Notes under the pieces: generated by a model
Told to the model about the DNA's origin: nothing
What the model saw: the letters and a program-made list of their open reading frames with translations, nothing else
The model's database searches: none
Assembly (NCBI GenBank): GCA_963668695.2
Contig: CAXXLQ010000004.1
Location: 2,336,001 to 2,400,000, forward strand
Direction of reading: 5' to 3'
Length of the DNA stretch: 64,000 nucleotides
From: Vicinamibacteria bacterium
GTDB taxonomy: Bacteria > Acidobacteriota > Vicinamibacteria > Marinacidobacterales > Marinacidobacteraceae
In this document: positions 4,033 through 51,384 of the stretch, one piece after another
How the letters are laid out: every line of letters starts with the position of its first letter
How positions within the stretch are numbered: position 1 is the stretch's first letter
Position numbers and translations under genes: made by a program

Positions 4033-4410
4033 ACAGCCGGTGATGAAACCCGCGCGGCCCAGTTCTCCCGGTGGGGGCTCGGCCGGCGATCCATCCCGGC
4101 TGAACCGCGTCGCTTCGCGGCGCTCATCGGTTTCGGTCGGAATACACGCGGGCCAGTTCTCCCGGTGGGGGCTCCTCCCTCACGCGCCTTGTCAGCCGGA
4201 CCCCCACCGGGAGAACTGGGCCTCGCCGGCCTCGGCGCTCACGCGGTTCCACCACCGGCTGTTCACCGCGTCGCTGCGCGGCGCTCATCGTTGCGTTTCG
4301 GTCGGAATACACGCGGGCCAGTTCTCCCGGTGGGGGCTCCTCCCTCACGCGCCTTGTCAGCCGGGCTCCTCCCCGGCCTCGGCGCTCACGCCGGTTCCAC
4401 CACAGGCTGT
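4033..4410. mobile_element. MITE family A, one copy plus a partial tandem copy, carrying four 18-bp inserts
   Basis: Ends ACAGCCGGTGATGAAACCC and GGTTCCACCAC(C/A)GGCTGT; internal sequence matches 33287-33467; right end overlaps the TAA of the convergent gene. Confidence 0.85.
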
Positions 4411-5330
4411 TAATCGCGTCCGCCGACCCTGAGACGGATCGAGCCGTCGCTCGTGCGGAGGTTGATCTGGGGGCCTGTCCCGTCTCCCAGCGTGGTGAGC
4501 GCGACCGGGCCTTCGCGTTGCCATGCACGACGGTCGCTGTCGTCCTCCGCGGTGAGGTCGCCCACGGCCGAAACCAGCGCGTTCGTGCCGCGGGGAAGGC
4601 TGAGGCGCACCGGACCATCGGCGGTGCGCAGGAACCACTCGCTGTCCCGGGCCGCTCCTCCCGCGGCGACCTCCACTTCGATCCCCCCGTCCGCCGACAC
4701 CGCCATTACTTCCTGAAGTCGCCCAAGGAGGCGGATTCGTCCTTCGGCGGTTGCGGCGTGAAACCGCCCCTCGAGATTCTCACCCTGAATGTTTCCGTCG
4801 CCGGTGCGCAGGAGGACGGGATCTTGATCGGGTCCGGCCGGCGACCGCAGACCGTCCGCGAAGATCCTGCCAGCGGCCGTCGTCGCGCGGACCGGACCGG
4901 TCAGGCCGCTGAGCTCGATGCGTCCGGAAGTGGTTCGCGCGTCCACCGCCGTACCCGTGGGCACGGCGATCTCAAGCCTGAGAACGAGGTCTTCCCACGG
5001 GGGAAAGGCCCGGGCGGTCGCGATCCGGCCCGTCACCACCACGGCTTCCGGATCCTGTTCGCGGTCGAACTCAACGAGCAGGGCGGCGAGCGCAGCCTGC
5101 ATGGCCTCCCGGGTGGGGGCCCTTGCGGAGCGCCGCACCAAAACCTCGATGTCGGTCCCGAGGTGCTCCCGTACGCTCAGCGAACCGCGGCCGAGCCGGA
5201 CAACAAGCTCGGGGGCACCGGGCCGGGTGATCGTCTCCTCCGAGGTCTCCTCGACCCAAGGAAAACACCCGAACAACAGGCTCCCGAACGCGGTCAGAAC
5301 GACGAGCAGGGCCGGGATGAATCGCTTCAT
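4410..5330 (-). CDS. DUF4097/adhesin-like beta-repeat lipoprotein
   Basis: Start inferred at MKRFIPALLVVLTAFGSLLFGC (lipobox-like); repeated xRTxxGxIxL beta motifs; overlaps the upstream gene stop. Confidence 0.75.
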   Translation of the reverse strand: MKRFIPALLVVLTAFGSLLFGCFPWVEETSEETITRPGAPELVVRLGRGSLSVREHLGTDIEVLVRRSARAPTREAMQAALAALLVEFDREQDPEAVVVTGRIATARAFPPWEDLVLRLEIAVPTGTAVDARTTSGRIELSGLTGPVRATTAAGRIFADGLRSPAGPDQDPVLLRTGDGNIQGENLEGRFHAATAEGRIRLLGRLQEVMAVSADGGIEVEVAAGGAARDSEWFLRTADGPVRLSLPRGTNALVSAVGDLTAEDDSDRRAWQREGPVALTTLGDGTGPQINLRTSDGSIRLRVGGRD

Positions 5331-7057
5331 CGATTCCCCTCCCGAGGATTTCCCTCTCGAGCCGGAGACTGTCGGACCCGGACCGACAGGTCGCCGTCGT
5401 CGGTCGAGATCGTCACTCGCCGGGAAGCGGAACCTGCCGACCCCGTCCAGCGCGAACGCCCGTCGCGGTCCGTCCGTTCCAGGGCGAAGTCGCTCTCGAC
5501 TTCGCCGCCCCCGGCCTCTGCCGAGAGCGCGAAGGAGCCATCCGCCGGGAGAGCCAACCGGATGTCGCCCCGGTCGGTCGTCAGAGTGACATCTCCGTTC
5601 AATGCGTCGGTCGCCACATCCACGAGGGCGTCCCCGCCGTCCACCGAGAGCGCCTGTGCGAATTCCCGCACGGTGATGGCGCCGGCACGGCCCGAGAAGC
5701 TCGCCGGGCCGAGGAGATTCGAAGCCCGCACCTCGCCGCGCCCGCTGGAAACCGTCACCGACCCGGCGATATTCGCGAGAATGAAAGCCCCGCCAGCTCC
5801 CGAGATTTCCACCGTGGAGCGCGCCTCCCGCACCTCGACGCTTGCGGACTCGGTCACGATGCGGAGCGGCCCCCCCACGGAGGTGGCCAGGATCGGGCCG
5901 AACTCCGAGCGTACCGTCGCCGAACTTTCGATCCGGTCGAGCGTGATCGGGGAGATCCGGGTTTCGACCTCGACCGGTCCGGTGGCCAACGCCACCTCGA
6001 CCGGAGCATCCCGGCCGCGCACCCGCACCGAGGAGCCCGCGCCCGAGATCCATACCGGGGCGCCTTCCGATTCGACCGTGACGGGACCGGTCACCGATTC
6101 GACTTCGACGACGGCCCGCCGGCCGCGGATCTGAAGCCCTCCCTCGATCTCCGACGCCCACACCGCGCCGTCGCGGGCCCGCAGCGAAACCGCTCCGCGC
6201 GCGCCCCGGACGTCAAGAGGGCCCTCGCTGGTCCGGGCCTCAACGTCTCCAAAAGGCCCTTGGATGCGTACCACCCCTTCGCCGCTGAATGCCGAGATGT
6301 TGACGCCCGGAGGAAGTACTACCCGAATCTCGATGGCCACATCGGATTCGCCGGAGTCCTCCACCCCGACCGGAATCCGGCCGCTCTCGGCGTCGAAGGG
6401 CCCGGCAACCAGCCGGACGGAAGCCGCGCGGGCGGCGGCCTGTTCCCGGTTCGCTGCCCACACGCGCTTCGAGAGGGTGACGCGGCCCTCTTTGGCAATA
6501 CCCGGCGGGAGTGGCTCCGCGGTGGCTTCCGGGCCCGTGGCGTCGTCCAGTCCGGACGGGGCGGAGGGCGCCGCCTCCACCAGGATGTTGCCCGCCGGTA
6601 CCGAGATCACGACATCCACCGGGCCATCGCCGGGCAGGGAAATCGTCCTCTCGGTGACGAAGACATGCTGCGGGAAATCGGCCATCCCCCGCGCCGCCAG
6701 TCGGCTCATCTCCAAGAGACGGAGTTCGAGGCCCTGGCTCTCGATCACTCGCTGGGCCAGGGTGAGGCCCGTGCCGCAAAGGATCAGCAGCAGGAGGAGG
6801 AAGACCTCCAGCGCGCCAAATCGTGTCCTTCCCTTCCACAGCCGGCGGACAATCTTGGACAGGCCCCAAACCACCAGCAGGAGAGGCCACCAGACCGCGG
6901 CGAGCGGCAGCAATTCGAAAACAAGCAGCACGAGCCGCGTTCCCGCGAGGTTTGCCGCGAGAAACAGTCCTCCGACAAGGATCAGCCCGATTCCGAGCGC
7001 GGTGCCGCAGCCGCTTCCGGAACGGGGAGTTTTTCCCGCCGTCCCGGGATCCATCAT
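5327..7057 (-). CDS. Membrane protein with N-terminal LiaF/DUF5668-like TM region and DUF4097 beta-repeat domain
   Basis: GLILVGGLFLAANL..WWPLLLVVWGL TM motif followed by many G-x-V-x-V beta repeats. Confidence 0.75.
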   Translation of the reverse strand: MMDPGTAGKTPRSGSGCGTALGIGLILVGGLFLAANLAGTRLVLLVFELLPLAAVWWPLLLVVWGLSKIVRRLWKGRTRFGALEVFLLLLLILCGTGLTLAQRVIESQGLELRLLEMSRLAARGMADFPQHVFVTERTISLPGDGPVDVVISVPAGNILVEAAPSAPSGLDDATGPEATAEPLPPGIAKEGRVTLSKRVWAANREQAAARAASVRLVAGPFDAESGRIPVGVEDSGESDVAIEIRVVLPPGVNISAFSGEGVVRIQGPFGDVEARTSEGPLDVRGARGAVSLRARDGAVWASEIEGGLQIRGRRAVVEVESVTGPVTVESEGAPVWISGAGSSVRVRGRDAPVEVALATGPVEVETRISPITLDRIESSATVRSEFGPILATSVGGPLRIVTESASVEVREARSTVEISGAGGAFILANIAGSVTVSSGRGEVRASNLLGPASFSGRAGAITVREFAQALSVDGGDALVDVATDALNGDVTLTTDRGDIRLALPADGSFALSAEAGGGEVESDFALERTDRDGRSRWTGSAGSASRRVTISTDDGDLSVRVRQSPAREGNPREGNR

Positions 7058-7260
7058 GGTGGGGGCGGCGGAGGGCCGGACGCCGGCCCCGAACCGGAGT
7101 CGCGGTCCCGAATCACCAGGCGCACGCCCACTGCAATCAGGATGAGCGGCCAGAACCGAACGAGCTCGTCGATATCGACGATGTCGAGGTTCGACAGCAA
7201 GAAAACAATCCCGATCAGGATCAGCACTGCTCCCGTCCAGTTCCCTCGCTGGGCCATCAT
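7054..7260 (-). CDS. Small LiaI/LiaF-like (DUF5668) membrane protein
   Basis: GAVLILIGIVFLLSNLD..FWPLILIAVGV pattern; ATGA overlap with the next gene. Confidence 0.8.
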   Translation of the reverse strand: MMAQRGNWTGAVLILIGIVFLLSNLDIVDIDELVRFWPLILIAVGVRLVIRDRDSGSGPASGPPPPPP

Positions 7261-7263
7261 CTA

Positions 7264-7480
7264 GCAGCCTGTGGATAGAGTGACGTGAGCGCCGAGGCCG
7301 GTGAGGCCCAGTTCTCCCGGTGGGGCCAGTCCTCCCGGTGGGGGCCCGGCTGACGAGGCGCGCGAGGGAGGAATACCTGATGTATTTCGACCGAAGCGCA
7401 ACGATGAGCGACGCGAAGCGGATGGGTTCAGCCGGGATGGATCGCCGGCCGAACGCCGCGTGACTTTGTTCACAGGCTGC
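7264..7480. mobile_element. MITE family A (A2 TIR variant), 217 bp = 181 + two 18-bp inserts
   Basis: GCAGCCTGTGGATAGAGT ... ACTTTGTTCACAGGCTGC; preceded by TA; lies inside the operon. Confidence 0.88.
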
Positions 7481-8024
7481 TCGCCTCCTCCTCTTCACCT
7501 TCCTCCGGCGGTACCCGGGGCGGGATGTCGATCGGGGCCGGCGGGGAAGGGGAGACATCCGCAACCGGGGATGCGCCGAGCGGTTCCGCAGCGGCCTGAG
7601 TGGCCGGAGATCCCTCGGCAGGAGCGTCGGGAGCTCCCGGGATCAGGGGACGTCCCCTTAAAAGTTGGAATCCGATCCAGACGAGGACCAGCGGCCAGAG
7701 TCTGAGCGCCCACTCGAGTTCGGGAATCATGGCGAGGGTCGCGATTACGCCGGCCCCCATGAGCCCCACCGCCCAGTTGCGGTCCAAAGAGACTGTCGCC
7801 GGACGTCCTTCGGCGTGGGCCCGCACCACTTCTTCGGTCGTCCGGATCGCGTTCACAATCCCGAAGATCCATACCGCAATCACCGCGGCGACCAATTCAT
7901 CCTGCAGGAGGGCGACAAACGCCGCGGCGAGCGCCAGTCCGCGGGCCGTAGCCCCGGCATAGAGGTGACCGAGGCCGGGGAGCACAACGGACAGGACACC
8001 GGCGAGTCCCGGCGAGCGATTCAT
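7470..8024 (-). CDS. Membrane protein (TM2/DUF5668-like) of the ECF operon
   Basis: SPGLAGVLSVVLPGLGHLYAG motif, several TM helices, LWPLVLVWIG; its stop lies within the MITE end. Confidence 0.75.
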   Translation of the reverse strand: MNRSPGLAGVLSVVLPGLGHLYAGATARGLALAAAFVALLQDELVAAVIAVWIFGIVNAIRTTEEVVRAHAEGRPATVSLDRNWAVGLMGAGVIATLAMIPELEWALRLWPLVLVWIGFQLLRGRPLIPGAPDAPAEGSPATQAAAEPLGASPVADVSPSPPAPIDIPPRVPPEEGEEEEASSL

Positions 8025-10901: not shown

Positions 10902-12044
10902 GTGCGGGGTTTTTCCCATGATTCGCACTTTCGTTGGTCCCGCTCCGTGAGGCCCGACGAGCCGGGAGAAGGCGCGACCCGGCCCAATCCGGAGTCTGGT
11001 TTGGAGTCCCGTCCGGAGAAGCCGGGCACAACAACACAGCCGCCTCCCCGGTCCGGCGGGGATGTGGAGGCGGCGGGCGCGCAAGCGGCGGGCTCAGACC
11101 AGGCGGCGAGCCCTCGATCCCGAATCGAGGAGACGCTCCGGCGCCGCAGTCCGCGCGGGGTGGAGGAATCCGATTCCGCTCGTGATCGCAAGCGAACCTC
11201 CGGGTTGCATCCCCCCCCGGAAGCTTCCGCCTCGGAGCACTGGAGTTGGACCATCCGGAGACGCGTAGCCGAGGGCAGTCCGGCGCCGGAGTCGGGAGCC
11301 GAACCCGCGGCGGAGGATGAGGCCGGCGCCGGCGAACTCCCACCCGCCTCCCAGGCGACGGAGATCCGGGAACGGGTAGAGCGTCGTCTCCAGGAGGTGG
11401 AGGATCGTCGTAGTCGTAACGTCGCCTCCGCGGGGACTGCGTCGACGCCAACCCCGACGAGCCCGCGGCGAGGCCTCGCCGCCGCGCCCGGATCGGAGGA
11501 GCCGTCGCGCGGGCCGGAAGATGCTCCAGATTGGGAAATGCCCTGGGTTGAAGACGAAGAGGGGCCCAAGCCGCGGGCGGAAATCCTCCCCGCCCGACCC
11601 CCATCGCGCCTTGCCGCCTTCATCGCAACCTGCGGTTTCATCGGGCGGATTCCGATCGCGCCGGGAACATTCGGAGCGGCAGTGGGCCTCCTTGCCTTCA
11701 CCCTGACCCGGAATTTGGCGGGTGGTGTCTCCGTGACTCTGCTCGCGATCGCCGTGGCCGTCGGCGTCTGGGCCGGCGGGCGGCACGCGAAGGATCTTCG
11801 TCAGCCGGACCCGCGCTCCGTAGTGGTGGACGAGTTTTGCGGCATGTGGCTCGCGCTTGTCGGCACGAATCCTTCCCTCCTGGTAGTGGCGATTGCGTTC
11901 GCGGCGTTTCGGTTCCTGGACATCGTGAAGCCGCCGCCCGTTCGACAGGCGGAGCGGCTCGCGGGCGGGGTCGGCATCATGGCCGACGACCTGGTCGCGG
12001 GTGGCATCGTGCGCGTGGCCTTGCTGCTGGCCCTGGGGATGTAG
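10902..12044 (+). CDS. pgpA: Phosphatidylglycerophosphatase A with long low-complexity N-terminal extension (start uncertain)
   Basis: C-terminal GFIGRIPIAPGTFG, DPRSVVVDEFCG, FRFLDIVKP, GIMADDLVAG; precedes cinA. Confidence 0.85.
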   Translation: MRGFSHDSHFRWSRSVRPDEPGEGATRPNPESGLESRPEKPGTTTQPPPRSGGDVEAAGAQAAGSDQAASPRSRIEETLRRRSPRGVEESDSARDRKRTSGLHPPPEASASEHWSWTIRRRVAEGSPAPESGAEPAAEDEAGAGELPPASQATEIRERVERRLQEVEDRRSRNVASAGTASTPTPTSPRRGLAAAPGSEEPSRGPEDAPDWEMPWVEDEEGPKPRAEILPARPPSRLAAFIATCGFIGRIPIAPGTFGAAVGLLAFTLTRNLAGGVSVTLLAIAVAVGVWAGGRHAKDLRQPDPRSVVVDEFCGMWLALVGTNPSLLVVAIAFAAFRFLDIVKPPPVRQAERLAGGVGIMADDLVAGGIVRVALLLALGM

Positions 12045-12056
12045 CCGGTGGCCCTG

Positions 12057-12135
12057 GCAGCCTCTGGACGAAGTCACGCGGCCCAGTTCTCCCGGTGGGG
12101 GCTTCGGCGCTCACGTCCCTTCATCCACAGGCTGC
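12057..12135. mobile_element. Internally deleted mini-copy of MITE A2 with one 18-bp insert
   Basis: GCAGCCTCTGGACGAAGTCACGCGG..CTTCATCCACAGGCTGC ends; 18-mer at 12083-12100. Confidence 0.75.
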
Positions 12136-12241
12136 CAGCTGAGCCCGGGACCGAACCGGGAAGTCGCGGGATGCGAGAGAACTCGTTCTCGGGTCGGGCA
12201 AGGCTCTCGGAGCCGGTCTTCTGACCGCCGGAGGGAGTCTG

Positions 12242-13546
12242 TTGCCGAGCGCGGCGATAGTGGCGGTCGGCACCGAACTTCTCGCGCCTTACCGCACGGA
12301 CCGCAACACCCCGCTCCTGAAGGAGCGGCTCTCGGAAACGGGAGTGCAGGTTGTTTTTTCGGCAGTAGTTCCCGATGAGGAATCCGTCATGGAGGAGACT
12401 CTTCGGGCCGCTCTCCGGCGCTGCCGGTTCGTCTTTGTTTGCGGCGGTCTCGGTCCGACCACCGACGACGTAACGCGATTCGTCGCCGCCAGCCTTCTGG
12501 AAGTCCCGCTTGTCGAGGATGCGGCCTCACTCGCCAGGATTGAGTCCCGCTTCAGAAGCCGCGGAATGGAAATGCCGGGGGTGAACCGCCAGCAGGCGCT
12601 GATACCTGACGGGGCGGCGGCGCTGCCCAATCCAGCGGGAACCGCGCCCGGAGTGCTGGCGCGCACGGACGAGGGGGCGTGGCTCGTGCTCCTCCCCGGG
12701 CCACCGTCGGAACTGACCGCCATGTTCGACGCGGAGGTTCGTCCCCGACTGGCGCGCGAAATCGGACTGTCGGAGGGTCGGGTTCGCGAGACGCTCGGGA
12801 TCGCGGGTTTGCCTGAATCGGTCCTGCAGGAGCGCATTCTGGATCTCACTCCGGCAAGGAATGCGCCCGAGCAACTCGCGATCCTCGCCTCCGGCGGCGA
12901 GATCGACGTTCGGGTGACCGGACCCCCTGGACGGAAGGCGGAAGTCCGGCGGTTGGCTGACCGGATGGCCGGGCGGTTGGGCAGTGCAGTCTTCACCAGG
13001 ACGGCCGGGGAGCATCTTGAACACGTGGTGGGGCGCACGCTCACGGGACGTGGAGAGCGCGCCGCCTTTGCGGAATCGCTTACCGGAGGACTGATCGCCG
13101 AGCGGGTTACCCGCGTTCCGGGGTCCTCGGCGTGGTTCGATCTGGGGATCGTGGCCTACGCCAACGCGGCGAAGCGCGATCTGCTGGAGGTCCCGGACAG
13201 CGTGCTCGGAGAGCACGGAGCGGTCAGCGAAGCCGTGGCGGTGGCGATGGCTGATGGTGCTCGCCGCCGGTCCGGGAATGTTTGGGGCGTTGCCGTCACC
13301 GGGATCGCCGGGCCGGGCGGGGGGAGCGTGGAGAAGCCGGTGGGTCTCGTCTGGATCGCCGTCAGCGGGCCCGTCTTGCGCACGCAGCGGTTCCGCTTTC
13401 CCGGAGACCGGTCGCTCGTCAGGCAACTCACCGCGACGGCGGCTCTCGATCTGCTCCGCCGGACGATGCTCGCAGCCGGTGGGCAGAGTGACGTGAGCGC
13501 CGAGAGCGGCCAGTCTCCCGGTCGGGGCGAGGCGCCCGGCCTTTAG
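12242..13546 (+). CDS. cinA: CinA competence/damage-inducible protein (MocF + NMN deamidase domains)
   Basis: AVGTELL, GGLGPTTDDVT, NPAGTAPG, AESLTGG, GSSAWF, HGAVSE, TGIAGPGGG, KPVGLVWI. Confidence 0.95.
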   Translation: MPSAAIVAVGTELLAPYRTDRNTPLLKERLSETGVQVVFSAVVPDEESVMEETLRAALRRCRFVFVCGGLGPTTDDVTRFVAASLLEVPLVEDAASLARIESRFRSRGMEMPGVNRQQALIPDGAAALPNPAGTAPGVLARTDEGAWLVLLPGPPSELTAMFDAEVRPRLAREIGLSEGRVRETLGIAGLPESVLQERILDLTPARNAPEQLAILASGGEIDVRVTGPPGRKAEVRRLADRMAGRLGSAVFTRTAGEHLEHVVGRTLTGRGERAAFAESLTGGLIAERVTRVPGSSAWFDLGIVAYANAAKRDLLEVPDSVLGEHGAVSEAVAVAMADGARRRSGNVWGVAVTGIAGPGGGSVEKPVGLVWIAVSGPVLRTQRFRFPGDRSLVRQLTATAALDLLRRTMLAAGGQSDVSAESGQSPGRGEAPGL

Positions 13547-13782
13547 TAGCCCGTGGAAAAAGCACCCCGCACTGTTCCCAGGGCGCCACGTACGCCGAAT
13601 GCGTCGGTTTTCTGTGTGCGGGACGCTTTTCCTACGGGCTGTTGATGTCGCGTATCGCTCCGCGATCCGCGACATCGGTTTTCGTGGTGAGGGGAAACCC
13701 CTCCCCACGCCCCTCCCCACGCCCCTCCTCTGCAGCGCTCCGCGCCGCGGATGGGCAGATGCAGACTTTCACCACCGGTTGT
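13546..13782. mobile_element. MITE family B
   Basis: TA then GTAGCCCGTGGAAAAAG ... TTTCACCACCGGTTGT (ends similar to family A); core TTTCGTGGxGAGGGGAAACCCCTCCCCAC shared with 38668-38890, 61160-61296 and 63850-63935. Confidence 0.7.
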
Positions 13783-14041
13783 TGAGGCGCTGGAAGATGC
13801 GTGGGCCGCAGTCACGGCGGATTCCCGTTTCCTCCCGTATGTGCAACTCCACGGTTCGAGGCCTGCCTCTTCACAGATATCGCTCTCGTCTGAAGGCCCC
13901 CACCGGGAGAACTGGCCGGCGTTCCTTTGCGGCCGGCGCCATCGGGACGGTCGGCCTGCCCGCGAGGCTGTATTTCACAGCGACTGGGCCGCGTGACTCT
14001 GCCCACCGGCTGCTCAAGTGCGAGGATCTCGCCCCGTCCCC

Positions 14042-14674
14042 ATGGAACGCGGAGTAGCGGTCCATCCGCCGCGGCTCTTCGCGGCCCTGCCGCTTCCGGA
14101 GCGCCTCCGAAAGGAGCTCTTTGCCGCTTCGGGTGCGATCGCCGGGTTGCTCCCGGCCTCCCTCTTCCGGCGGGTCCCTCCCGAGAACCTGCATCTGACG
14201 CTGCGCTTTTTCGGCGCCGAAACGGGCTCGCTTGACCGCGAGGGAATCGCGGCTCTGCTCCGCGAGCGCCTCGGGGCTTGTCCACCGGGACCGCTGACTC
14301 TGAAGGCCTCTGAGGTGTCGGCTTTCGCCTCTCTCCGCCGGGCCCGGATCGTCTGGGTGGGTCTCAGCGAGGAAGGAATCACGAAAGGCGAATCGGGGCG
14401 CCTCCTGTCCCTCCAGCAGGAGGTGGAGGCGGTGGCGCGGGACATCGGCCTCGCTCCGGAGAATCGCCCTTTCGTTCCCCACGTGACGCTAGGCCGTTTG
14501 CGCTCCCCGTCGCGCCTCCCGGTGCAGGGGCTCGCGGCCGCCGGCCCCGCCGCGCCCGGTAGCGCCTGGTCCTCGGATTTCACCGTCCGGGAATTCGTTC
14601 TGTTTGCCAGCTTCCTCACCCCGGGCGGGGCGATTTACGAGCCTCTCAGCCGCTTCCCGCTGGAGGCGCGCTGA
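14042..14674 (+). CDS. thpR: RNA 2',3'-cyclic phosphodiesterase (2H family)
   Basis: RLFAALPL, NLHLTLRFFG and FVPHVTLGR (two HxT motifs); follows cinA. Confidence 0.92.
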   Translation: MERGVAVHPPRLFAALPLPERLRKELFAASGAIAGLLPASLFRRVPPENLHLTLRFFGAETGSLDREGIAALLRERLGACPPGPLTLKASEVSAFASLRRARIVWVGLSEEGITKGESGRLLSLQQEVEAVARDIGLAPENRPFVPHVTLGRLRSPSRLPVQGLAAAGPAAPGSAWSSDFTVREFVLFASFLTPGGAIYEPLSRFPLEAR

Positions 14675-14689
14675 CCGCAGGTCGGTTTC

Positions 14690-15847
14690 CTACCGCCCGC
14701 CGCTTTCTTCCGGCCCGGAAGCGGCCAGCCGAAATTCCGCGAGGAGGTCGGGGCCAAGGCAGGCATAGCGCGCCGAGCGGCGGTCGGGCTGGGCGTACGG
14801 CAATTCCCGGTGCTGTTCGGCCGGAGCCCTGGTGGCGTCGAAGAGCCCGGTTCCCTCGGCACGGCCCAGAAAACGCGGAGCCATGTAGAGCACCAGGCGG
14901 TCGGCCAGTCCCTGTTGCAGGAAGGCCGATGTGAGCCGGGGGCCTGCCTCGACCAGGAGGGTGTGCGCACCGCGGCGCCCCACCTCCGCCAGGACCGCTT
15001 CGAGCGCAATGGGCTGCGTCACGCCGTCAGCCGGGGCGCCCGGGACGTCGGCGACCGCGGCCTCGACCACCTCGGCGCCCAGGCCCTCCAACCGGCGGCG
15101 GGCCGGTTCCGGAGCGTCGGGTGCGCAAATTACGAGCACCGGATCATGGTCCAGGCCGCGGAGGATGCGCGCCTCCGGAGGAATTCTGAGGCTCGGGTCC
15201 AGAATCACGCGCAGGAGGGGGCGGGAACCGCGTCGGGGTCTGGGCGTGAGGAGAGGGTCGTCGGCCGCCACCGTCGCGATTCCGGTGAGGATGGCATCGT
15301 TTTCCCGGCGCAGCACTCTCCCGTGCCGGCGGGTGCGCGGGCGGGTAATCCAGCGCGTGCCCGGTGGGGCCATGACTCCATCCACGGAAATCGCGGCCTT
15401 CACCGTCACCCAGGGGGTGCCGGTCCTGAGGAATTTGAAGAACGACGGATTCAGGTCCTGCGCTTCCTGGCGAAGGACTCCCGTCGTGACGTCAACGCCC
15501 GCGGAGCGAAGGCGATCGAATCCTCCTCCCCGAACCCGCGGGTCGGGGTCCGCGTGCGAGGCGACGACCCGACGGACTCCCGAGGCGATGATCCGTTCTA
15601 CGCAGGGCGGGGTTCGTCCGACGTGGCAGCAGGGTTCGAGGTTGACGTAGAGCGTGGCGCCCCGGGCCGCGTTACCCACCGTGAGGACCTGGGCTTCCGC
15701 GTGCGGGCGTCCGGCGCGGGCGTGGAAACCTTCGGAAAGGACGTGTTCGTCGCGTACCAAAACGGCGCCCACCGCCGGGTTGGGCGGCGCCGTGTACTGG
15801 CCCAGCAGGGCGAGTTCGAGCGCCCGCCGCATAAAGCGATTGTCCAC
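14690..15847 (-). CDS. ribD: Riboflavin biosynthesis deaminase/reductase RibD
   Basis: PNPAVGAVLV, HAEAQ, LEPCCHVGRTPPC, LLVEAGP. Confidence 0.95.
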   Translation of the reverse strand: MDNRFMRRALELALLGQYTAPPNPAVGAVLVRDEHVLSEGFHARAGRPHAEAQVLTVGNAARGATLYVNLEPCCHVGRTPPCVERIIASGVRRVVASHADPDPRVRGGGFDRLRSAGVDVTTGVLRQEAQDLNPSFFKFLRTGTPWVTVKAAISVDGVMAPPGTRWITRPRTRRHGRVLRRENDAILTGIATVAADDPLLTPRPRRGSRPLLRVILDPSLRIPPEARILRGLDHDPVLVICAPDAPEPARRRLEGLGAEVVEAAVADVPGAPADGVTQPIALEAVLAEVGRRGAHTLLVEAGPRLTSAFLQQGLADRLVLYMAPRFLGRAEGTGLFDATRAPAEQHRELPYAQPDRRSARYACLGPDLLAEFRLAASGPEESGGR

Positions 15848-15869
15848 GAAGCGGATCGTATGGGGGCCG

Positions 15870-16158
15870 GCAGCCTGTGGACAAGGTCGCGCGGCGTTCC
15901 CGAGCCAGAAGAGATGGGGGTCGGGTGGTCCCGCCCCCCATCCCTTCCGCTCCGGGGTCTGCGCGGTGCTGGCGCCCCGTTCCGGAAACGAGCGGCGATG
16001 CATCCCGGCTGAACCACGCCGCGTCGCGTCGCTCATCGTTGCGCTTCGGTCGAAATGCAGCCGGGCCAGTTCTCCCGGTGGGGGCTCCTCCCTCGCGCGC
16101 CTTGTCAGCCGGCGGCCTCACCGCTCTCGGCGCTCACGCCACTTTGTCCACAGGCCGC
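15870..16158. mobile_element. MITE A2 with one 18-bp insert and a nested ~83-bp insert
   Basis: GCAGCCTGTGGACAAGGT ... ACTTTGTCCACAGGCCGC; lies between the divergent ribD and ribE. Confidence 0.82.
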
Positions 16159-16201
16159 TGAGCTTGCGCGGCGGGAGCGGATCGGGCAATCTCCCTGTCG
16201 C

Positions 16202-16831
16202 ATGTTCACCGGGCTGGTCAGCGCCGTCGGAGAGGTAGTGACAGTGGAGGATCTCGAGGCCGGACGGCTTCTCACTGTCGCCCATCGTGGCGGAGAGTTC
16301 ACCGGCCTTGGTGTTGGTGACAGCGTCGCGGTGTCCGGGGTCTGCCTTACCGCGGTGGCGGCCGGGTCCGAGTTCACCTCGTTCCAGGTGGCGGCCGAGA
16401 CGCTATCCCTGACGACGCTGGGCAGTGCACGGCTGGGAACCCGGGTGAATCTGGAGTTGCCCCTGCGCGCCACCGATCGCCTGGGCGGGCACTTCGTCCA
16501 GGGACACGTGGACGGGTGTGGAGAGGTGATCGCGGCGGGCGGATCCGACGCCGACTACCGGGTTCTGGTTCGGCACGGCGAGCCCCGGTGGATTGTCCGC
16601 AAGGGTTCGATCGCGCTGGACGGAGTCAGCCTGACGGTGGCGTCTTCCTCGCCCGACGAAGCGTGCTTCGAAGTGATGCTGATTCCCCACACGCGGGCCG
16701 CCACGACTCTCGGTGCTCTCCGGGAGGGGGACCGGGTCAATCTGGAGTACGACATCCTGGCCAAGTACGTTGGTGCGCTTGTTCCGGGTCCAGCCGGTGG
16801 CCCGGGAGGAACGGGCGGAGGCCGAGGCTAA
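16202..16831 (+). CDS. ribE: Riboflavin synthase alpha chain
   Basis: MFTGLV start motif, [38 protein letters not shown]. Confidence 0.96.
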
Positions 16832-17207
16832 CAGCCGGTGGTGGAACCCGGGTGAGCGCCGAGCCCGGCCAGTTCTCCCGGTGGGGGCGAGGCGCTCGGC
16901 TGACAAGGCGCGTGAGGGAGGAGCCCCCACCGGGAGAACTGGCCCGGGTGTATTCCGACCGAAACGCAACGATGAGCGGCGCAAAGCGACGCGTTCAGCC
17001 GGGATGGATCGCCGGCCGAGCCCCCACCGGGAGAACTGGGCCGCGTGGGTTTCACTACCGGTTGTTTGGCCGGGATGCATCGCCGGGCGAGCCCCCACCG
17101 GGAGAACTGGGCCGCGTGGGTTTCACTACCGGTTGTTTGGCCGGGATGCATCGCCGGGCGAGCCCCCACCGGGAGAACTGGGCCGCGTGGGTTTCGCCAC
17201 CGGCTGT
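16831..17207. mobile_element. MITE A (235 bp, three 18-bp inserts) with its right 71 bp tandemly triplicated
   Basis: Begins in the ribE TAA; 71-bp units at 16998, 17069 and 17140. Confidence 0.88.
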
Positions 17208-17268
17208 AGAATCCCTCTTTGAGACGGTTTCCGAACGAGGGCCTTCGGTCCGACGAGGGGTTGCGCGC

Positions 17269-18498: not shown

Positions 18499-18696
18499 CA
18501 GCCTGTGGTGAAACCCACGCGGCCCAGTTCTCCCGGTGGGGGCTCGGTCGGCGATCCATCCCGGCTGAACCGCGTCGCTTCGCGCCGCTCATCGTTGCGT
18601 TTCGGTCGAAATACACTCGGTATTCCTCCTTCACGCGCCTTGTCAGCCGGGCGCCTCACCGGCCTCGGCGCTCACGCGGGTTCCACCACAGGCTGT
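18498..18696. mobile_element. MITE A, 199 bp = 181 + one 18-bp insert
   Basis: TA-ACAGCCTGTGGTGAAACCC ... GGGTTCCACCACAGGCTGT-TA; begins in the ribBA stop codon. Confidence 0.92.
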
Positions 18697-18697
18697 T

Positions 18698-18748
18698 AGG
18701 AGCGCCGGCCAGTTCTCCCGGTGGGGCCTTCAGACCGGCATCGCCCCC
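18698..18748. repeat. REP-like hairpin repeat (GGAGCGCCGG..CAGACCGGCATCGCCC) with an 18-bp insert
   Basis: Related copies at about 2748, 13885, 23846, 26238, 44583, 44958 and 61092. Confidence 0.7.
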
Positions 18749-18779
18749 CACAGGGGGGCGACACTCCCATCGCTGCCCC

Positions 18780-18845
18780 CTGGATGAGCTCTGGATGAGC
18801 TCTGGATGAGCCCTGGATGAGCCCTGGATGAGCCCTGGATGAGCT
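18780..18845. repeat. 11-bp tandem repeat CTGGATGAGC(T/C) x6
   Basis: Six consecutive units read directly from the sequence. Confidence 0.95.
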
Positions 18846-19051
18846 GTTGCCGCCCGCTGTAGCGCCGGTCTTCAGGCCCCGCCGGAAGAATTGGCGAGCA
18901 GCGTCCCCCGCGGGGGAGCGAAACCCTCACTATCCAACTTCACGGCCCGCGACACCGGAAGCGCGGTGCCCCATCCATCCCAAAGGCGCCGACGGCGCTT
19001 CGCCCTCGCTTGGTACGATCCCACCGACCAACCCCTGAAGGGAGCGATTTC

Positions 19052-23821: not shown

Positions 23822-23958
23822 CCCCAGCGTGTGGCGCGCAGGCAAGGGACCGCTGGGCAGTTCCCCCGGTGGGGCCCTTCAGACCGGCATCGCCCCGCGT
23901 CAGCGGGGCGATGCCGGGGTCCTTGCGCGCCCGCGTTCGGGTGCGGCGAGGTGACCGC

Positions 23959-25910: not shown

Positions 25911-26362
25911 ACGGCGGGCGCCGTTAGGGTGGTCCGCTGAGCACGTTTCGCCCGCCTCCGGCGGGCGGTGCCGGTGTGAACATCGGCGTTCCCTCGCCGT
26001 CGCGCGCTCGACGATGATCGGTCGTATGCGTTCTTCACTGGGCTTCGCCCAGCGGTGCCGGCCCCCACCGGGAGAAACCCTCATGATCGGGTCTTCCTGC
26101 ACACCCTCGCCCGTCATGGAAAAGACGCGGCGCGGGTAGCGGGAGCGGCGAGCGGTCGCGCCCTCCGGGACTCGAAGGTGGTGCGGGCCTCACGTTGGCA
26201 TGGCGCAGCGTCATCGGCGCTGGTTTCGCGCTCCCGCGCGATGCCGGTCGGAGACCGGCCCAGTTCTCCCGGTGGGGGCCCGCTGTCGCGCGTCGTCGGG
26301 CGGGTTGGTGCGGCCCTCTCCCTCTGATGCGCCGTCCCGTCAGCCCTGCCGGACCTGCGCCC

Positions 26363-32716: not shown

Positions 32717-33287
32717 ATGCTTGGCGTCACGGCGCTGCTGGACGCCAACATCCTCTATTCGGCTGGTTTACGTTGACTTCCTGCTCCGGCTGGCTGCTGA
32801 GGAGTTGTATCGGACGCTGTGGAGCGAAGAAATCCAGAAGGAATGGTCTCGCCGTCTCCTTGAAGGCCGCGATGATCTTTCGTGGGAAATGTTGGAGCGA
32901 ACCCATCATCAAATGCGGAAGTACTTTCCGCATGCCTGTGTAACCGGGCACGATTCCCTGGTGGGGGTGGTTTCTTTGCCGGATCCCGGTGACCGCCATG
33001 TTCTCGCGGCTGCTGATCCATGGCCGTGCGGACGTGGTTGTAACCAGGAACCTCAAGGATTTCCCCCCGGAATGCATGCGCAGGTATGGCATCGAGGCGC
33101 AATCTCCGACGATTTCATACTTGATTTGTTTGCTGAATTCCCGTTGAGAGTTATCAAGGCCGCGCATCTACACCGCCGTGCGCTGCAGAATCCAGCGCGA
33201 TCAGCCAAAGAACACCTCGTCGCCTACGGAGAGGCTGGCCTGTCAAAGGTCGCCGCCCGGCTGGAGCAGCACATTTCCGACCTCTAG
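32717..33287 (+). pseudogene. PIN domain protein with about three frameshifts
   Basis: MLGVTALLDANILYS in one frame, DFLLRLA..LPDPGDRHVLAAA in another, and IHGRADVVVTRNLKDFP shifted out of that frame. Confidence 0.75.
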
Positions 33288-33467
33288 CAGCCTGTGGTGA
33301 AACCCACGCGGCGTTCGAGCGGTGATCCATCCCGCCTGAACCGCGCCGCTTTGCGGCGCTCTGCGTTGCGTTTCGGTCCAAATACACCAGGTATTCCTCC
33401 CTCACGCGCCTTGTCAGCCGGGCGCCTCCCCGCTCTCGGCGCTCACCCGGGTTCCACCACAGGCTGC
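33287..33467. mobile_element. MITE A, 181-bp copy with no 18-bp insert
   Basis: TA-GCAGCCTGTGGTGAAACCC ... GGGTTCCACCACAGGCTGC-TA; begins in the PIN TAG. Confidence 0.92.
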
Positions 33468-33590
33468 TAGCGGTGGCTGAGCCCCGCGCGGTTTCTTCGC
33501 CCTGTCGGGCGACGATGCTGGTCCCAAAGCCCCACCGGAAGAAACGCCCCTAGTCGGGTCGGGTCGGCCGGTACACCCCGCCCGCCGGTA

Positions 33591-33724
33591 ACAGCCGGTG
33601 GTGGAACCCGGGTGAGCGCCGCAAAGCGCCAGTTCTCCCGGTGGGGGGGCGGTTCAGGCGGGATGGATCGCCGCTCGAGCCCCCACCGGGAGAACTGGGC
33701 CGCGTGGGTTTCACCACAGGCTGT
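33591..33724. mobile_element. MITE A, internally deleted, two 18-bp inserts
   Basis: TA-flanked TIRs; deletion between two GAGCGCCG microhomologies. Confidence 0.85.
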
Positions 33725-33864
33725 TAAGAGCCGGATGTCGGCCACGGGCAGCCTTCGCGCACGAAGGGTGGCCATCCGGATGGTCGGCGTGCCGCCAGGA
33801 CGGCTCTTTCGCGGCAATTGGTAACGGTCCCTTCCTGCGGCGGGTGGCGAAGTAGGATGAAACC

Positions 33865-43372: not shown

Positions 43373-44386
43373 ATGGACGATCTCTTCCGATATCTGCGCG
43401 AGATCGTGGACATCCCGTCGGTGACCGGCGATGAAAAAGCGGTTGCCGAGCGTGTCGGTGCGGATCTCGAGGCGGCAGGACTCGACGTCGAGTTCGACGA
43501 GGTCGTCCCGGGCCGACCGAACCTGATCGCGCGCGCCGGGTCCGGCCAGCCGCGCCTCTGGTACTGCACCCATCTGGACACGGTGCCGCCCTACTTCCCG
43601 TCCAGCGAGAGCGCGACTCACATCGGGGGGAGAGGGTCTTGCGACGCCAAGGGCATCCTCGCGGCGATGCTGTTCGCGGCCCGCCGTCTCCGGGACGAGG
43701 GCGTTTCGGGCTTTGGTCTGGCATTCACCGTCGGCGAGGAGGTGGACAGCGCCGGCGCCATCCACCTCGAGAAGCGGGGCCCCGGGCATCCGATCGAAGG
43801 GGTCCATCTGGTCTGTGGGGAACCCACCGAGGGACTGATGGCGAGCGGTCACAAGGGAACCCTGCGGGTCCGGATCCGGGCTCGGGGGACGGCGGCTCAC
43901 TCGGCTTACCCGGAGGCCGGAGATTCCGCGATCCATCGTCTGCTTGAGACGATTGCCCATCTCCAGTCGCTCGACTGGGGCAAGAGCGGGATCCTCGGTT
44001 CCGCGACCCTGAATGTGGGGCTCATCTCCGGCGGGGTGGCGGGGAACGTTTTCGCCCCATCCGCCGAGGCGACCCTCTACTGGCGTCTCGTCGGCGAGGC
44101 CGAACCGGCGCGGCGCCGGCTGGAAGCGATCCTTGCTGCCGACGAGAACCTCAGTTTCGAACACGTCGGCCAGAACGACGCGGTCCTCTGCCGGACGCTG
44201 CCCGGTTTCGAGGTGGCCCCGATGTCCTACTCGACCGACATCCCGTTCATGCCTTCCTGGGGAACCCCGCTCCTCATCGGTCCCGGCAGCATCCACGACG
44301 CGCACACGGCTCACGAACACGTCCTGAAGAGTGACCTGGTGGCCGCCGTCGGCTACTACCAGAAGATCGCCCACGCTCTCCTCTAG
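43373..44386 (+). CDS. M20 family metallopeptidase (ArgE/DapE-like)
   Basis: THLDTVP, GRGSCDAKG, VGEE, GEPT, GPGSIHDAHT. Confidence 0.9.
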   Translation: MDDLFRYLREIVDIPSVTGDEKAVAERVGADLEAAGLDVEFDEVVPGRPNLIARAGSGQPRLWYCTHLDTVPPYFPSSESATHIGGRGSCDAKGILAAMLFAARRLRDEGVSGFGLAFTVGEEVDSAGAIHLEKRGPGHPIEGVHLVCGEPTEGLMASGHKGTLRVRIRARGTAAHSAYPEAGDSAIHRLLETIAHLQSLDWGKSGILGSATLNVGLISGGVAGNVFAPSAEATLYWRLVGEAEPARRRLEAILAADENLSFEHVGQNDAVLCRTLPGFEVAPMSYSTDIPFMPSWGTPLLIGPGSIHDAHTAHEHVLKSDLVAAVGYYQKIAHALL

Positions 44387-44566
44387 CAACCTGTGGTGGA
44401 ACCCGGGTGAGCGCCGAGGCCGGCGAGGCGCCCGGCTGACAAGGCGCGTGAGGGAGGAATACCGAGTGTATTTCGACCGAAACGCAACGATGAGCGGCGC
44501 GAAGCGACGCGGTTCAGCCGGGATGGATCGCCGGCCGAACGCCGCCTGGGTTTCACCACAGGCTGC
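44386..44566. mobile_element. MITE A, 181-bp copy with no 18-bp insert
   Basis: TA-GCAACCTGTGGTGGAACCC ... GGGTTTCACCACAGGCTGC-TA; begins in the M20 TAG. Confidence 0.92.
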
Positions 44567-45028
44567 TAGGGGAGGGAGCGCCAGGAGCGCCGGCCAGTTC
44601 TCCCGGTGGGGGCCTTCAGACCGGCATCGCCCCGCGGAGCGGGGCGAAACTCCCATCCTTACTCACCCGTATCGCCCGGACCCACCCCGGGGACGGCCCC
44701 ATCCCCCTCCACGCAGCGAAGCCTCGCCGCCCATCCTTACGGTTAGCGACAGCGGAAGCGCGTATTCCCAACCGTCCTTATCTCGCCGGGCAGGCCGCCG
44801 CCCTCCCGCCGCCCCATCAAAGGAATCAGCGCTACGCGCTTTCGCCCCGCTCCGCGGGGCGGGGCCGGCCCCCACCGGGAGAACTGGCCAGAGGTCGGCG
44901 TTCCTGGCCGTCTCCGCGGTTCTTCTCGGGGGCGACGGGAGTTTCGCGGCCTGCGGCCGCGATGCCGGTGTGAACACCGGCGCTCCTAGCGCGTACCGTT
45001 AGTCGCCCACCCCACCCGCGCGGCCCGC

Positions 45029-50378: not shown

Positions 50379-50857
50379 CCCCGCGTCCACCGCCCCGTCA
50401 GCGTGATCCCTCGCTCCTCCCGTTGTCTCGCCACCACCAGAGCGGACTGCAGATCGCCGTGCTCATCGATCAGGGGCTCAAGGGCGAGCCTACCGCCAAG
50501 AGGGTGACCGAACTCATCGGCAAGGTGGTCCACCTCGCCGAGTCCGAACTCTTCGAACACTTCCAGCTCGAGGAGACGATTCTCTTTCCGGCGGTGCGGC
50601 CGATCATCGATTCCGGGGAGCTGCTGGACACGCTCGCTGCCGGACACCGGACGATGGAAGGTCTCGTGCGGCGGCTCGAAGCGGCGGACTACCAGGAACG
50701 GCTTTCCCTCCTCAAGGAGTTCGGAGAACTTCTTCTCCGCCATATCCACACCGGGGAACGCGAACTCTTCCGCCAGGTTCAGGATCGGCTGGAGCAGGCC
50801 CAGCTCGACGAACTCGGCCGGAAAATCACGGCGAAGATCGAGGCAACCGATACCTGA
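50375..50857 (+). CDS. Hemerythrin/HHE domain protein (paralog 1)
   Basis: RDPSLLPLSRHH, HFQLEETILFP, HIHTGERELF. Confidence 0.85.
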   Translation: MTPRPPPRQRDPSLLPLSRHHQSGLQIAVLIDQGLKGEPTAKRVTELIGKVVHLAESELFEHFQLEETILFPAVRPIIDSGELLDTLAAGHRTMEGLVRRLEAADYQERLSLLKEFGELLLRHIHTGERELFRQVQDRLEQAQLDELGRKITAKIEATDT

Positions 50858-50899
50858 GCCGCCGTCCGCGGCACCCGGAGGGCGCGGGGAGCGTCGCTA

Positions 50900-51384
50900 A
50901 CAGCCGGTGGTGGAACCCGTGTGAGCGCCGAGGCCGGCCAGTTCTCCCGGTGGGGGCGAGGCCCAGTTCTCCCGGTGGGGCCAGTCCTCCCGGTGGGGGC
51001 CCGGCTGACAAGGCGCGTGAGGGAGGAGCCCCCACCGGGAGAACTGGGCCGCGTGTATTCCGACCGAAACGCAACGACGAGCGGCGCGCAGCGACGCGGT
51101 TCAGCCGGGATGGATCGCCGGCCGAGCCCCCACCGGGAGAACTGGGCCGCGTGGGTTCCGCCACCGGTTGTTCAGCCGGGATGGATCGCCGGCCGAGCCC
51201 CCACCGGGAGAACTGGGCCGCGTGGGTTTCATCACCGGCTGTTTGGCCGGGATGGATCGCCGGCCGAGCCCCCACCGGGAGAACTGGGCCGCGTGGGTTT
51301 CATCACCGGTTGTTTGGCCGGGATGGATCGCCGGCCGAGCCCCCACCGGGAGAACTGGGCCGCGTGGGTTTCATCACCGGCTGT
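50900..51384. mobile_element. MITE A (272 bp, five 18-bp inserts) with its right 71 bp in four tandem copies
   Basis: TA-ACAGCCGGTGGTGGAACCC; 71-bp units at 51104, 51175, 51246 and 51317. Confidence 0.9.

Follow-up and report, generated by a model that had tools for sequence, protein, structure and literature searches.

An 18-bp micro-repeat that spreads separately from its host repeats in sponge-associated Vicinamibacteria

A 64-kb stretch of the genome of an uncultured sponge-associated acidobacterium (contig C4:2336001-2400000, analysed over its whole length and called the window below) carries 27 exact copies of the 18-mer CCCCACCGGGAGAACTGG, a discrete micro-repeat that spreads separately from the sequences hosting it. 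Its targets are mostly hairpin-forming repeats, i.e. one family of miniature inverted-repeat transposable elements (MITE A) and repetitive extragenic palindromes (REPs), and a few loops of protein genes. Pairs of empty and filled sites document repeated de novo entry, overwriting of target bases instead of target duplication, co-conversion of flanks between homologous repeats, and recombination at existing copies; approximately 20-22 bases are pasted in place of 0-4 bases. The mechanism fits no known family of mobile elements. We consider it slightly better than an even bet (probability roughly 0.55) that entry is a short-patch templated insertion by host functions, followed by conversion-like spread.

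Abundance and host repeats of the 18-mer

The copies in the window are distributed over both strands (14 minus, 13 plus), and none are expected from 100 dinucleotide-preserving shuffles. A model that had earlier read the letters without database searches (the sequence-only reading) had counted about 27 exact copies in both orientations plus some variants; all 27 are where it placed them, and allowing up to three mismatches adds four variants. Two of them, at 7326 and 50981, carry A13G and stand head to tail with a standard copy; the other two are at 18877 (three mismatches) and 23857 (two mismatches). Genome-wide, the comparison with chance suggested by the same reading came out at 1288 exact copies against an order-5 Markov expectation of 0.03 in the source assembly (G000; 4,095,246 bases, four contigs, 67% G+C). 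The assembly contains 1566, 1631, and 1679 copies within one, two, and three mismatches, respectively, and a single variant, A13G, accounts for 156 copies. These whole-assembly counts are inflated by about 7% by redundant, near-identical contigs: C1 matches C4:310-421 kb at ~99.5% identity, C3 matches C4:3.505-3.538 Mb at 97.6-99.7%, and the start of C4 (13-148 kb within the first 148 kb) is ~99% identical to its last ~130 kb. The duplicates are probably co-assembled strains or an unclosed circle. The non-redundant part of the genome (C4 1-3.76 Mb) holds 1198 exact copies and 1525 within two mismatches, with a density of 0.41 per kb, or 0.73% of bases.

All copies of the 18-mer were cut out of the genome before its hosts were mapped. 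MITE A hosts 1315 of the 1631 copies and is 184 bp long with ends AGCAGCCTGTGGTGAAACCC, the inverted ends being ~20 bp. Its main insertion sites are 38/39 (minus, 81 + 136 copies), 45 (minus, 388 copies, single or double), 76 (plus, 312 copies), 122 (minus, 64 copies), and 156 (plus, 297 copies), with minor sites at 36, 112, 128, and 140. Of the 345 full-length copies of MITE A, 86 contain no insert; one to five inserts are present in 62, 65, 68, 49, and 15, respectively, and nearly all possible combinations of sites were found. Most MITE A copies of low-copy species align to the empty form without gaps, and MITE A therefore does not need the 18-mer. The remaining 316 copies are mostly in REP hairpins of the type GCCGGTCT-NN-AGACCGGC and variants thereof, the second commonest host; ~68 such REP loci of the non-redundant chromosome have no insert and 72 show the commonest type of filling. 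The claim of at least five MITE sites plus REP sites thus holds, with five main and several minor sites in MITE A and REPs filled at 18709, 44594, 26260, 13898, and 23857 of the window.

Within the window, MITE A is empty at 33285..33468 (minus) and 44385..44568 (plus, the reference copy). Measured between query positions 3 and 181, empty copies are 179-184 bp long, and copies with one, three, and five inserts have 200, 233, and 270 bp, i.e. increments of 18 plus one extra base in the five-insert copy; the previously proposed ladder of 181/199/235/272 bp matches with slightly different end points. The single insert of MITE A 18496-18695 is at site 156 (18524..18541, minus). MITE A 16832-17064 is filled at sites 39 (16869, minus), 76 (16925, plus), and 156 (17022, plus), and MITE A 50901-51170 contains five copies at sites 39 (50938, minus), 45 (double, 50963 and 50981, minus), 76 (51030, plus), and 156 (51128, plus). 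A tandem pair of the standard and A13G forms occupies site 45 of MITE A 7285-7481 (7308..7343, minus). Partial MITE A copies are filled as well: 4255-4409, adjoining MITE A 4034-4261, at site 76 (4318..4335, minus), 15993-16137 at site 76 (16066..16083, minus), and 33613-33726 at sites 122 (33629, minus) and 156 (33681, plus; span 33629..33698). In addition, 71-bp units of the MITE A right end recur in tandem at 16832-17206 and 50901-51383, with two and three extra units, respectively, each bounded by an 18-mer on the plus strand (17093 and 17164, span 17093..17181; 51199, 51270, and 51341, span 51199..51358). A spacing of 71 bp between 18-mers occurs 109 times in the genome; it is among the commonest spacings of neighbouring copies, which are 49 (minus-plus), 18, 71, 56, 25, and 98 (594 clusters).

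Empty and filled sites in related genomes and duplicate contigs

Three related genomes are collinear with the window, namely G001 (93-95% identical), G004 (~90%), and G008 (~87%). The orthologous MITE at 3960-4440 (MITE A 4034-4261) has a single filled site, 156, in G001 and G004, and in the window is filled at sites 156 (4059..4076, minus), 76 (4153..4170, minus), and 45 (single form, 4202..4219, plus). Sites 76 and 45 are empty in G001 and in the outgroup G004 and are therefore gains in place; with [18] standing for the 18-mer, the change at site 76 reads GGAATACC to GGAGC[18]CCC, and at site 45 the flank changed from GGGC to GGAC. The whole MITE at 7285-7481 is missing in G001, G004, and G008, and the whole 18-mer array of MITE A 50901-51170 is missing at the orthologous locus in G001 and G004. 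An 18-mer in a short MITE-derived remnant (12083..12100, minus) is common to G001 (one mismatch) and G008.

The REPs at 18709, 13898, and 26260 are empty in G001. At 18709..18726 (minus) the difference is a clean 18-bp insertion, with GTCGG|CCTTCGGACCGGC in G001 and GCCGG[18]CCTTCAGACCGGC in the window. The copy at 13898..13915 (plus) lies in the 3' arm of a REP hairpin, and its left flank has become the usual TCTGAAGGC. The copy at 26260..26277 (minus), beside a REP at the end of the family C repeat described in the last section, has a net gain of 22 and a flank patch, GGAGC having become ACAGCGGGC[18], as is usual for that REP subtype. At 23857, the REP has no insert in G008, has its left arm filled in the window and G001 (variant ...CTGC form with two mismatches, 23857..23874, minus), and in G004 is filled elsewhere in the same REP and in opposite orientation; this REP was filled twice independently. 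A decayed copy beside a REP (18877..18894, plus, three mismatches) is also present in G001.

In passing, an element whose ends begin with TAGTGTGG(C/T)GTCCCGCAAAT and differ from the MITE A ends is present in G001 at the locus orthologous to 44380-44900 and in G004 at that orthologous to 15990-16200, where the window has only MITEs. Its reading frame may resemble an IS630-type transposase.

Duplicate contigs of G000 (97.6-99.7% identical) differ by exactly the 18-mer unit at six loci with otherwise identical flanks: MITE site 76 at two, site 45 empty or single at two, site 45 single or double at one, and one REP. These differences are recent events. Occupancy was further placed on a FastTree phylogeny of 324 non-redundant MITE A bodies, from which 21 rows on C1, C3, and the C4 tail were left out; columns around the insertion sites were masked, leaving 108 columns and a short, poorly resolved tree. 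The minimum numbers of occupancy changes at sites 39, 45, 76, 122, and 156 are 83, 86, 101, 25, and 93, with shuffled-label means of 87, 93, 105, 31, and 103, respectively. As these are nearly the shuffled values, occupancy by the 18-mer is almost unrelated to the descent of MITE bodies. The test rules out a single origin per site with simple inheritance; it does not separate gain from loss, and conversion between copies gives the same effect.

These comparisons bear on the explanation that the 18-mer is immobile, being either a segment of an old composite repeat that suffered deletions or a sequencing artefact. Site 76 is filled even in the distant genome G020, so the link between 18-mer and MITE is old, and deletions between copies do happen. 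Against this stand in-frame inserts in conserved genes whose outgroups are empty, the orthologous REP filled twice independently, the other genera with filling at other sites and in other REPs, and the scattered occupancy on the MITE tree. An adapter or assembly origin is countered by the 22 separately assembled genomes that carry the 18-mer, by its presence in records of several submitters, and by 13 public sequencing runs from seven studies, sponge metagenomes among them, that hold window 11500-19500 or part of it. Immobility in either form is hardly credible to us, and the sequence-only reading's view of a mobile micro-element, not explained by one ancestral composite with deletions, is upheld by the empty and filled sites in sister species, genes, and other genera. 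Four of the public runs were aligned. Their Logan contigs break at 18-mer copies, and the sites that are bridged show no 18-base indel and speak neither for nor against polymorphism; at site 13898, the contigs of runs X1 and X5 bridge the site with the 18-mer present.

In-frame insertions in protein genes

Insertions in coding sequences, for which the sequence-only reading had proposed a search, were found in frame in three genes. The first (C4:394435-394452; locus L148 4435-4452) is in a gene for an AcrB-family transporter of the resistance-nodulation-division (RND) type (PF00873, E 6e-241, residues 6-1044 of 1051), where the 18-mer adds the six residues PHRENW to a cytoplasmic loop after ...IHRRRHGGEPG. 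In an alignment of 14 of the 29 best loci, G000 and G001 are filled; the other 12 genomes, which represent six genera, are shorter by exactly 18 bases. The pump with PHRENW is presumably still made with a changed cytoplasmic loop, judging from the open frame. The second is mfd of G012 (locus L216 1501-1518), in which the 18-mer encodes PPPGEL near the N-terminus. Among all 15 genomes of the genus with a match, 13 lack the insert, and G010 has a decayed copy at the site of G012 that is 12 bases longer than the empty state. Because of this decayed copy, with the closer G007 being empty, the site was either reused or precisely lost. In the third, coaBC of G010 (locus L213 1501-1518), the 18-mer is in frame in a variable loop, and the comparison is less clean.

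All six frames of the 18-mer are free of stop codons (PHRENW, PTGRT, PPGEL, PVLPVG, QFSRW, SSPGG), as the sequence-only reading had stated and translation bears out, and its six stop-free codons explain why it is tolerated in gene loops. A search for in-gene copies via long stop-to-stop frames was uninformative at 67% G+C. Of four in-gene candidates that were followed, three, namely a TonB/SpoIID spacer, DPP-IV, and UvrA, were rejected, the 18-mer being upstream of or between the real genes.

Distribution across genomes

Allowing one mismatch, 21 of the 41 related genomes contain the 18-mer. It is present in each of the 15 other members of the genus (8 to 776 copies) and in four additional genera of the family (1 to 259 copies), and none of 16 genomes from two other families of the order contain it. 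MITE A occurs in 22 of 28 family genomes, which belong to five genera and are the same 22 that hold the 18-mer; the six family genomes without MITE A also lack the 18-mer at up to one mismatch. When one genome per species was scanned, at least 94 stretches with the 18-mer were obtained, in records of several submitters. Among the matches listed (80 of at least 94), almost all are metagenome-assembled genomes titled Acidobacteria, Vicinamibacteria, or 'Candidatus Marinacidobacterium', with single matches in four unrelated records.

The hosts and sites differ between genera. MITE A relatives in G019 are empty at site 76 and filled at other sites (agagcggt[<]gcggcgcc, cagccggggc[>]gcatcgcc). G018 uses further MITE sites, e.g. 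cgcgccgc[>]gtcagcc, where TT became GC[18], and its own different REP (GCCGGACTCCAGTCCGGC) likewise carries inserts, along with 44-bp tandem arrays. Copies in five low-copy congeners lie mostly in REP-linked hairpin contexts, a recurrent one having the 18-mer as the loop between GCGCGGCGC and GCGCCGCGC. G020 contains one exact copy only, inside MITE A at site 76. Neither the 18-mer nor its complement appeared in any paper found, supplementary files being outside the search; 'Marinacidobacterium' was likewise in no paper found, and papers on Vicinamibacteria, sponges, and repeats were off topic by title and abstract.

Distribution and abundance were weighed against the explanation that the 18-mer serves a function, for example as a DNA-uptake signal or as the binding site of a conserved host protein, and is kept identical by selection or uptake bias, with indels only as its origin. 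The word is identical across genera, its density of ~0.4 per kb is of the order of that of uptake sequences, and its one-base variants are reminiscent of the 'dialects' of such sequences. Parts of MITE A are also nearly identical between genera, and the cross-genus identity of the 18-mer is therefore no proof of a special constraint. Copy numbers range from 8 to 1566 within one genus and go down to a single copy (G020) among positive genomes of the family, and such wide variation makes a host function unlikely. The motif is missing from six of the 28 family genomes, arrived by insertion and not by point mutation, and has 1315 of 1631 copies in one selfish MITE and most others in REPs. No orientation bias by replichore was detected for the 316 copies outside the MITE (82+/90-, 67+/64-) or for the MITE itself; a seeming run of plus-strand copies in G018 was discarded as an effect of the order in which matches are reported. 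We regard a kept functional motif as improbable.

Junctions and rearrangements

The 18-mer has no inverted ends: in an inverted comparison of its two 9-base halves, 3 of 9 positions match by direct reading. It has no secondary structure beyond chance either (minimum free energy -1.1 kcal/mol, z = 0.46; with flanks z 0.01 to 0.62). Empty and filled pairs lack target duplications and show overwriting instead, in agreement with the earlier observation that both terminal inverted repeats and target duplications are absent. Over 187 distinct contexts the flanks are G (147) C (152) [18] C/G (134/50) C (149), and the empty and filled pairs show that flanking bases arrive with the insert. The pasted unit is thus better written as GC plus the 18-mer, sometimes with one additional C. 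Between 0 and 4 target bases are overwritten; on balance the site grows by 18 or 19 bases, or by 22 where the flank patch is longer.

At MITE site 156, GAAC became GAGC[18], with every listed filled variant having GAGC and every empty one GAAC. One base was replaced by GC[18] at site 39 (net 19), and AC by GC[18, A13G] in the change from the single to the double form of site 45. In the RND gene, CG became GC[18] (20-for-2), and in mfd, AGAC became GCC[18]T (22-for-4). A common REP site changed from GAAGGCCGGCG to GAAGGC[18]CCGGCG with a net gain of 19 (19-for-0), and GGGAC became GGGGC[18] in a REP of G004. Exceptions are MITE site 122 (GC to CC[18]), the single form of site 45 (GC to AC[18]), and 18709, where the flank GG is unaltered. 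The overwritten flanks proposed by the sequence-only reading are therefore real in the GAAC to GAGC change and at site 76; its constant net gain of 18 does not hold, the gain being 19 at site 39 and the common REP site and 22 at 26260.

Longer patches were found among copies of one repeat family, as at 13898 and 26260, and in the ...CTGC subfamily the base at -1 is G in 31 of 40 copies. Since patches equal the context of the respective REP subtype and CTGC is linked to the G at -1, existing 18-mer copies act as donors together with their neighbouring bases. Copies also recombine. Deletions end at them, as do 71-bp and 44-bp tandem arrays; G001 and G004 have 115- and 91-bp deletion derivatives of MITE 16832-17064, joined at one 18-mer, and seven chimeric contexts combine the left flank of site 76 with the right flank of site 156. 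Head-to-tail arrays over the whole of C4 comprise 135 double, two triple, one fourfold, and one fivefold array.

Search for mobilizing machinery

Genes were searched by six-frame scans with hidden Markov models in genomes that are 87-95% complete. No match to Y1_Tnp/RAYT (PF01797) was obtained in G000, G004, G015, G018, and G019; the family is matched in 15 of 28 family genomes, unrelated to 18-mer copy number, and a RAYT or other HUH nuclease was rejected as mobilizer because it is unmatched in the richest genomes. Scans for TnpB yielded nothing above the cut-off. An IS200/IS605-type palindrome-associated element was likewise rejected (no hairpin, no replichore bias, no Y1 gene, no TnpB). A CRISPR origin was discarded, as the Cas1 match scores a mere 26 bits and the arrays consist of identical 71-bp units and not unique spacers. 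The single IS110-family element of G000 (C4:482399; C4:482100-483880, locus L199) lies mid-REP hairpin (GCCGACCGGAGGTC | ... | AGGTCCGGCGTTCCC) and adjoins two 18-mers. Insertion into REP hairpins is a known habit of the IS110 family, and this is simply an insertion sequence in a REP and not a mobilizer. The search for an autonomous parent of MITE A started from 14 end pairs separated by 600-4000 bp. Four were fetched, and Pfam analysis of the open reading frames (ORFs) of three revealed a Fic protein and a CDP-alcohol phosphatidyltransferase besides unnamed ORFs, and no transposase.

The gene searches also concern insertion from an RNA template by a telomerase- or retron-like reverse transcriptase. 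A fixed and short unit, tandem arrays of up to five units, and a 13-base partial tandem (CCGGGAGAACTGG) found three times in G018 would suit such an enzyme; slippage between two CCGG explains the partial tandem equally well. RVT_1 (PF00078) is matched in four of 28 family genomes and has no match in G000, G004, G008, G018, and G019, which have 70 to 1566 copies. No conserved single-copy locus was found that could supply the template, the only exact copy in G020 being in a MITE, and flank co-conversion points to genomic templates. An RNA template is accordingly very improbable. Of the two modes offered by the sequence-only reading, conversion-like movement is supported by the co-converted flanks, and RNA-templated movement loses support because RVT_1 is unmatched in these five genomes.

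Proposed mechanism

Templated insertion by host functions would begin with a short patch of ~20-23 bases, templated by an existing copy of the 18-mer. Guided by flanking microhomologies of 1-4 G/C bases per side, the patch would either anneal in the form of single-stranded DNA or be copied when a stalled fork switches templates, and entry would take place where replication exposes, or stalls on, structured DNA such as REPs and the fold-back MITE. No transposase, HUH nuclease, or reverse transcriptase would be needed. Later spread might proceed by amplification of the host repeats, patch transfer among their copies, and recombination between 18-mer copies. A precedent is short-patch double illegitimate recombination, abbreviated SPDIR, in which ectopic single strands anneal at microhomologies and are integrated during replication (bioRxiv 10.1101/2023.11.22.568220). 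The resemblance lies in a short ectopic stretch that takes the place of a few bases, has microhomology at either side, and leaves no duplication; replacements of 20-for-2, 22-for-4, and 19-for-0 with G/C microhomology are seen for the 18-mer. SPDIR events are rare and variable in size and sequence, whereas the 18-mer is one fixed word pasted more than 1000 times, and a fixed patch identity is not an SPDIR feature.

Several findings weigh against this reading. Both ends of the 18-mer are sharp in 187 contexts, and since SPDIR gives variable patches, these sharp borders call for a discrete donor molecule or a sequence-specific factor, neither of which was found. A speculative donor would be the unpaired insert excised from the fold-back MITE; alternatively, a factor might be tied to MITE A. 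That the same sites are used repeatedly, five in MITE A and one in mfd of two species, suggests that targets are recognized by more than microhomology. The 18-mer is more uniform than its hosts, with a mean pairwise identity of 0.966 compared with 0.882 for MITE bodies, a comparison biased by defining copies as having at most three mismatches, and three variants (A13G, ...CTGC, and CCCTACCGGGAGAACCGG) are seen repeatedly across genera. For the polymorphisms between duplicate contigs, gain is indistinguishable from loss, and an unusual enzyme would escape six-frame scans of genomes that are 87-95% complete.

Some of these points would be expected if the 18-mer were a non-autonomous element moved in trans by a dedicated and so far unrecognized enzyme, perhaps the transposase of MITE A, that recognizes 18-22 bases and pastes them at preferred sites. 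Sharp ends, reused sites in MITE A and mfd, the same word with the same three variants in five genera, and the restriction of the 18-mer to the 22 of 28 family genomes with MITE A are in line with such an enzyme. By eye, and without a statistic, the 5' half CCCACCGG also resembles the MITE end CACCACCGG. On the other hand, inverted ends and target duplications are absent, the overwritten length varies from 0 to 4 with net gains of 18, 19, or 22, and flank co-conversion shows ordinary copies as donors. Moreover, the three MITE A end pairs examined among 14 enclose ordinary genes and no autonomous parent, and G020 holds MITE A with one exact 18-mer only. We judge a dedicated enzyme unlikely, though a serious competitor to insertion by host functions. 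A broader formulation can be put forward only tentatively and at clearly less than even odds: a sequence-specific activity may paste the ~20-base unit GC plus 18-mer without target duplication, inverted ends, hairpin, or a recognizable reverse transcriptase or HUH nuclease. It would prefer structured repeats and sometimes enter genes, operate in at least five genera of sponge-associated Vicinamibacteria, and be linked somehow to one MITE family.

Comparison with known systems

The closest likeness is to the small dispersed repeats (SDRs) of cyanobacteria, an analogy already drawn by the sequence-only reading and an apt one. SDR4-6 of Nostoc and relatives were reportedly described by Elhai et al. 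in 2008 (Genome Res 18:1484). To our knowledge, the SDRs of Nostoc are the only described parallel and have been without a mechanism since 2008. Both kinds of repeat are very short and fixed, occur in many contexts, are nested in larger repeats, are missing at orthologous sites of relatives, are confined to one lineage, and have an unexplained mode of movement. Compared by description and not by sequence, the 18-mer has 18 bases, or 20-22 with its semi-conserved flanks, and so lies below or at the lower limit of the 21-27 nt of SDRs; it belongs to Acidobacteriota and not cyanobacteria, has no hairpin of its own, overwrites 0-4 target bases, brings GC, and is confined to genomes with one MITE family. 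New relative to SDRs are therefore another phylum, a shorter length, a defined overwrite rule, and the link to one MITE family. SDR5 may use HIP1 as insertion site and SDRs were not found outside Nostocaceae (PMC5861425); SDRs are also treated in PMC3116915.

Other repeat classes share single traits with the 18-mer. REPs and the REPIN-RAYT system are also short extragenic repeats that number in the hundreds; the 18-mer forms no palindrome, enters REPs itself, and occurs without a Y1_Tnp match in G000, G004, G018, and G019. Like MITEs, of which MITE A is an ordinary example, it is non-coding, has many copies, and varies in presence at orthologous loci, but it has only 18 bp, lacks inverted ends and target duplication, and overwrites target bases. 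BOX elements of pneumococci and bacterial interspersed mosaic elements of E. coli are mosaic repeats with variable modules and resemble the filled MITE in that a larger repeat is composed of modules whose number varies between copies. Their modules vary at one place of one element, whereas the 18-mer is found at more than nine places of the MITE, in unrelated REPs, and in genes. DNA uptake sequences and uptake signal sequences are likewise one short and dense word that is shared by the genera of a family and has one-base variants; they originate by point mutation, are mostly in genes and terminators, and occur in all members. In contrast, the 18-mer arrives as an indel, is mostly in selfish repeats, and has 0 to 1566 copies among family genomes, and it was rejected as an uptake sequence on account of its indel origin, its uneven copy numbers, and the 1315 of 1631 copies in one MITE. 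Assignments to MITEs, REP/REPIN, CRISPR repeats, and reverse-transcriptase-dependent elements were rejected as well, because the defining tests failed.

Mobile DNA is commonly assumed to require two or more enzyme-binding ends. If the 18-mer spreads on its own, it does not conform to this rule, and it makes up 0.7% of a genome and adds six residues to an RND pump, Mfd, and CoaBC. The system has what the Nostoc SDRs lacked, namely 28 related genomes whose copy numbers run from 0 to about 1500, clean pairs of empty and filled sites in sister species and duplicate contigs, and sharp junctions, and it makes the mechanism testable by comparative and population genomics. It has practical consequences as well, as the 18-mer breaks short-read assemblies at every copy and drives deletions and tandem arrays in its host repeats. 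Should the sequence-specific activity outlined above prove true, the 18-mer and the cyanobacterial SDRs would be two cases of a general class of 'micro-transposition' overlooked by annotation.

Family C and other repeats of the window

The only longer repeat that contains part of the word is 'family C', a repeat of ~220 bp that is present at 26040-26260 of the window and at about 27 further loci of G000. Directly after a REP half-site it starts with CCCCACCGGGAGAAAC, which equals the first 14 bases of the 18-mer, and continues with CCTCATGATCGGG...; it has an internal hairpin TCATGAtCGGG/CCCGTCATGA and a REP at its end. The 18-mer is not a truncated family C copy, as the last 4 bases differ; family C may be its ancestor or a derivative, or the likeness may be due to chance. 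No Rfam family reached the gathering score in the window.

A second element of ~330 bp has REP-like ends that are both filled, with one 18-mer at 44594..44611 (minus) and another in the opposite end at 44870..44887 (plus). An empty REP hairpin, GCGCCGGTCTCCAGACCGGC, is located at 2753..2772 (plus). At 18780-18850 of the window, beside another REP, units of 11 bases (CTGGATGAGCY) follow one another in an ordinary variable tandem repeat that differs by 22 bases between public runs X1 and X9 and in unit number in G001.

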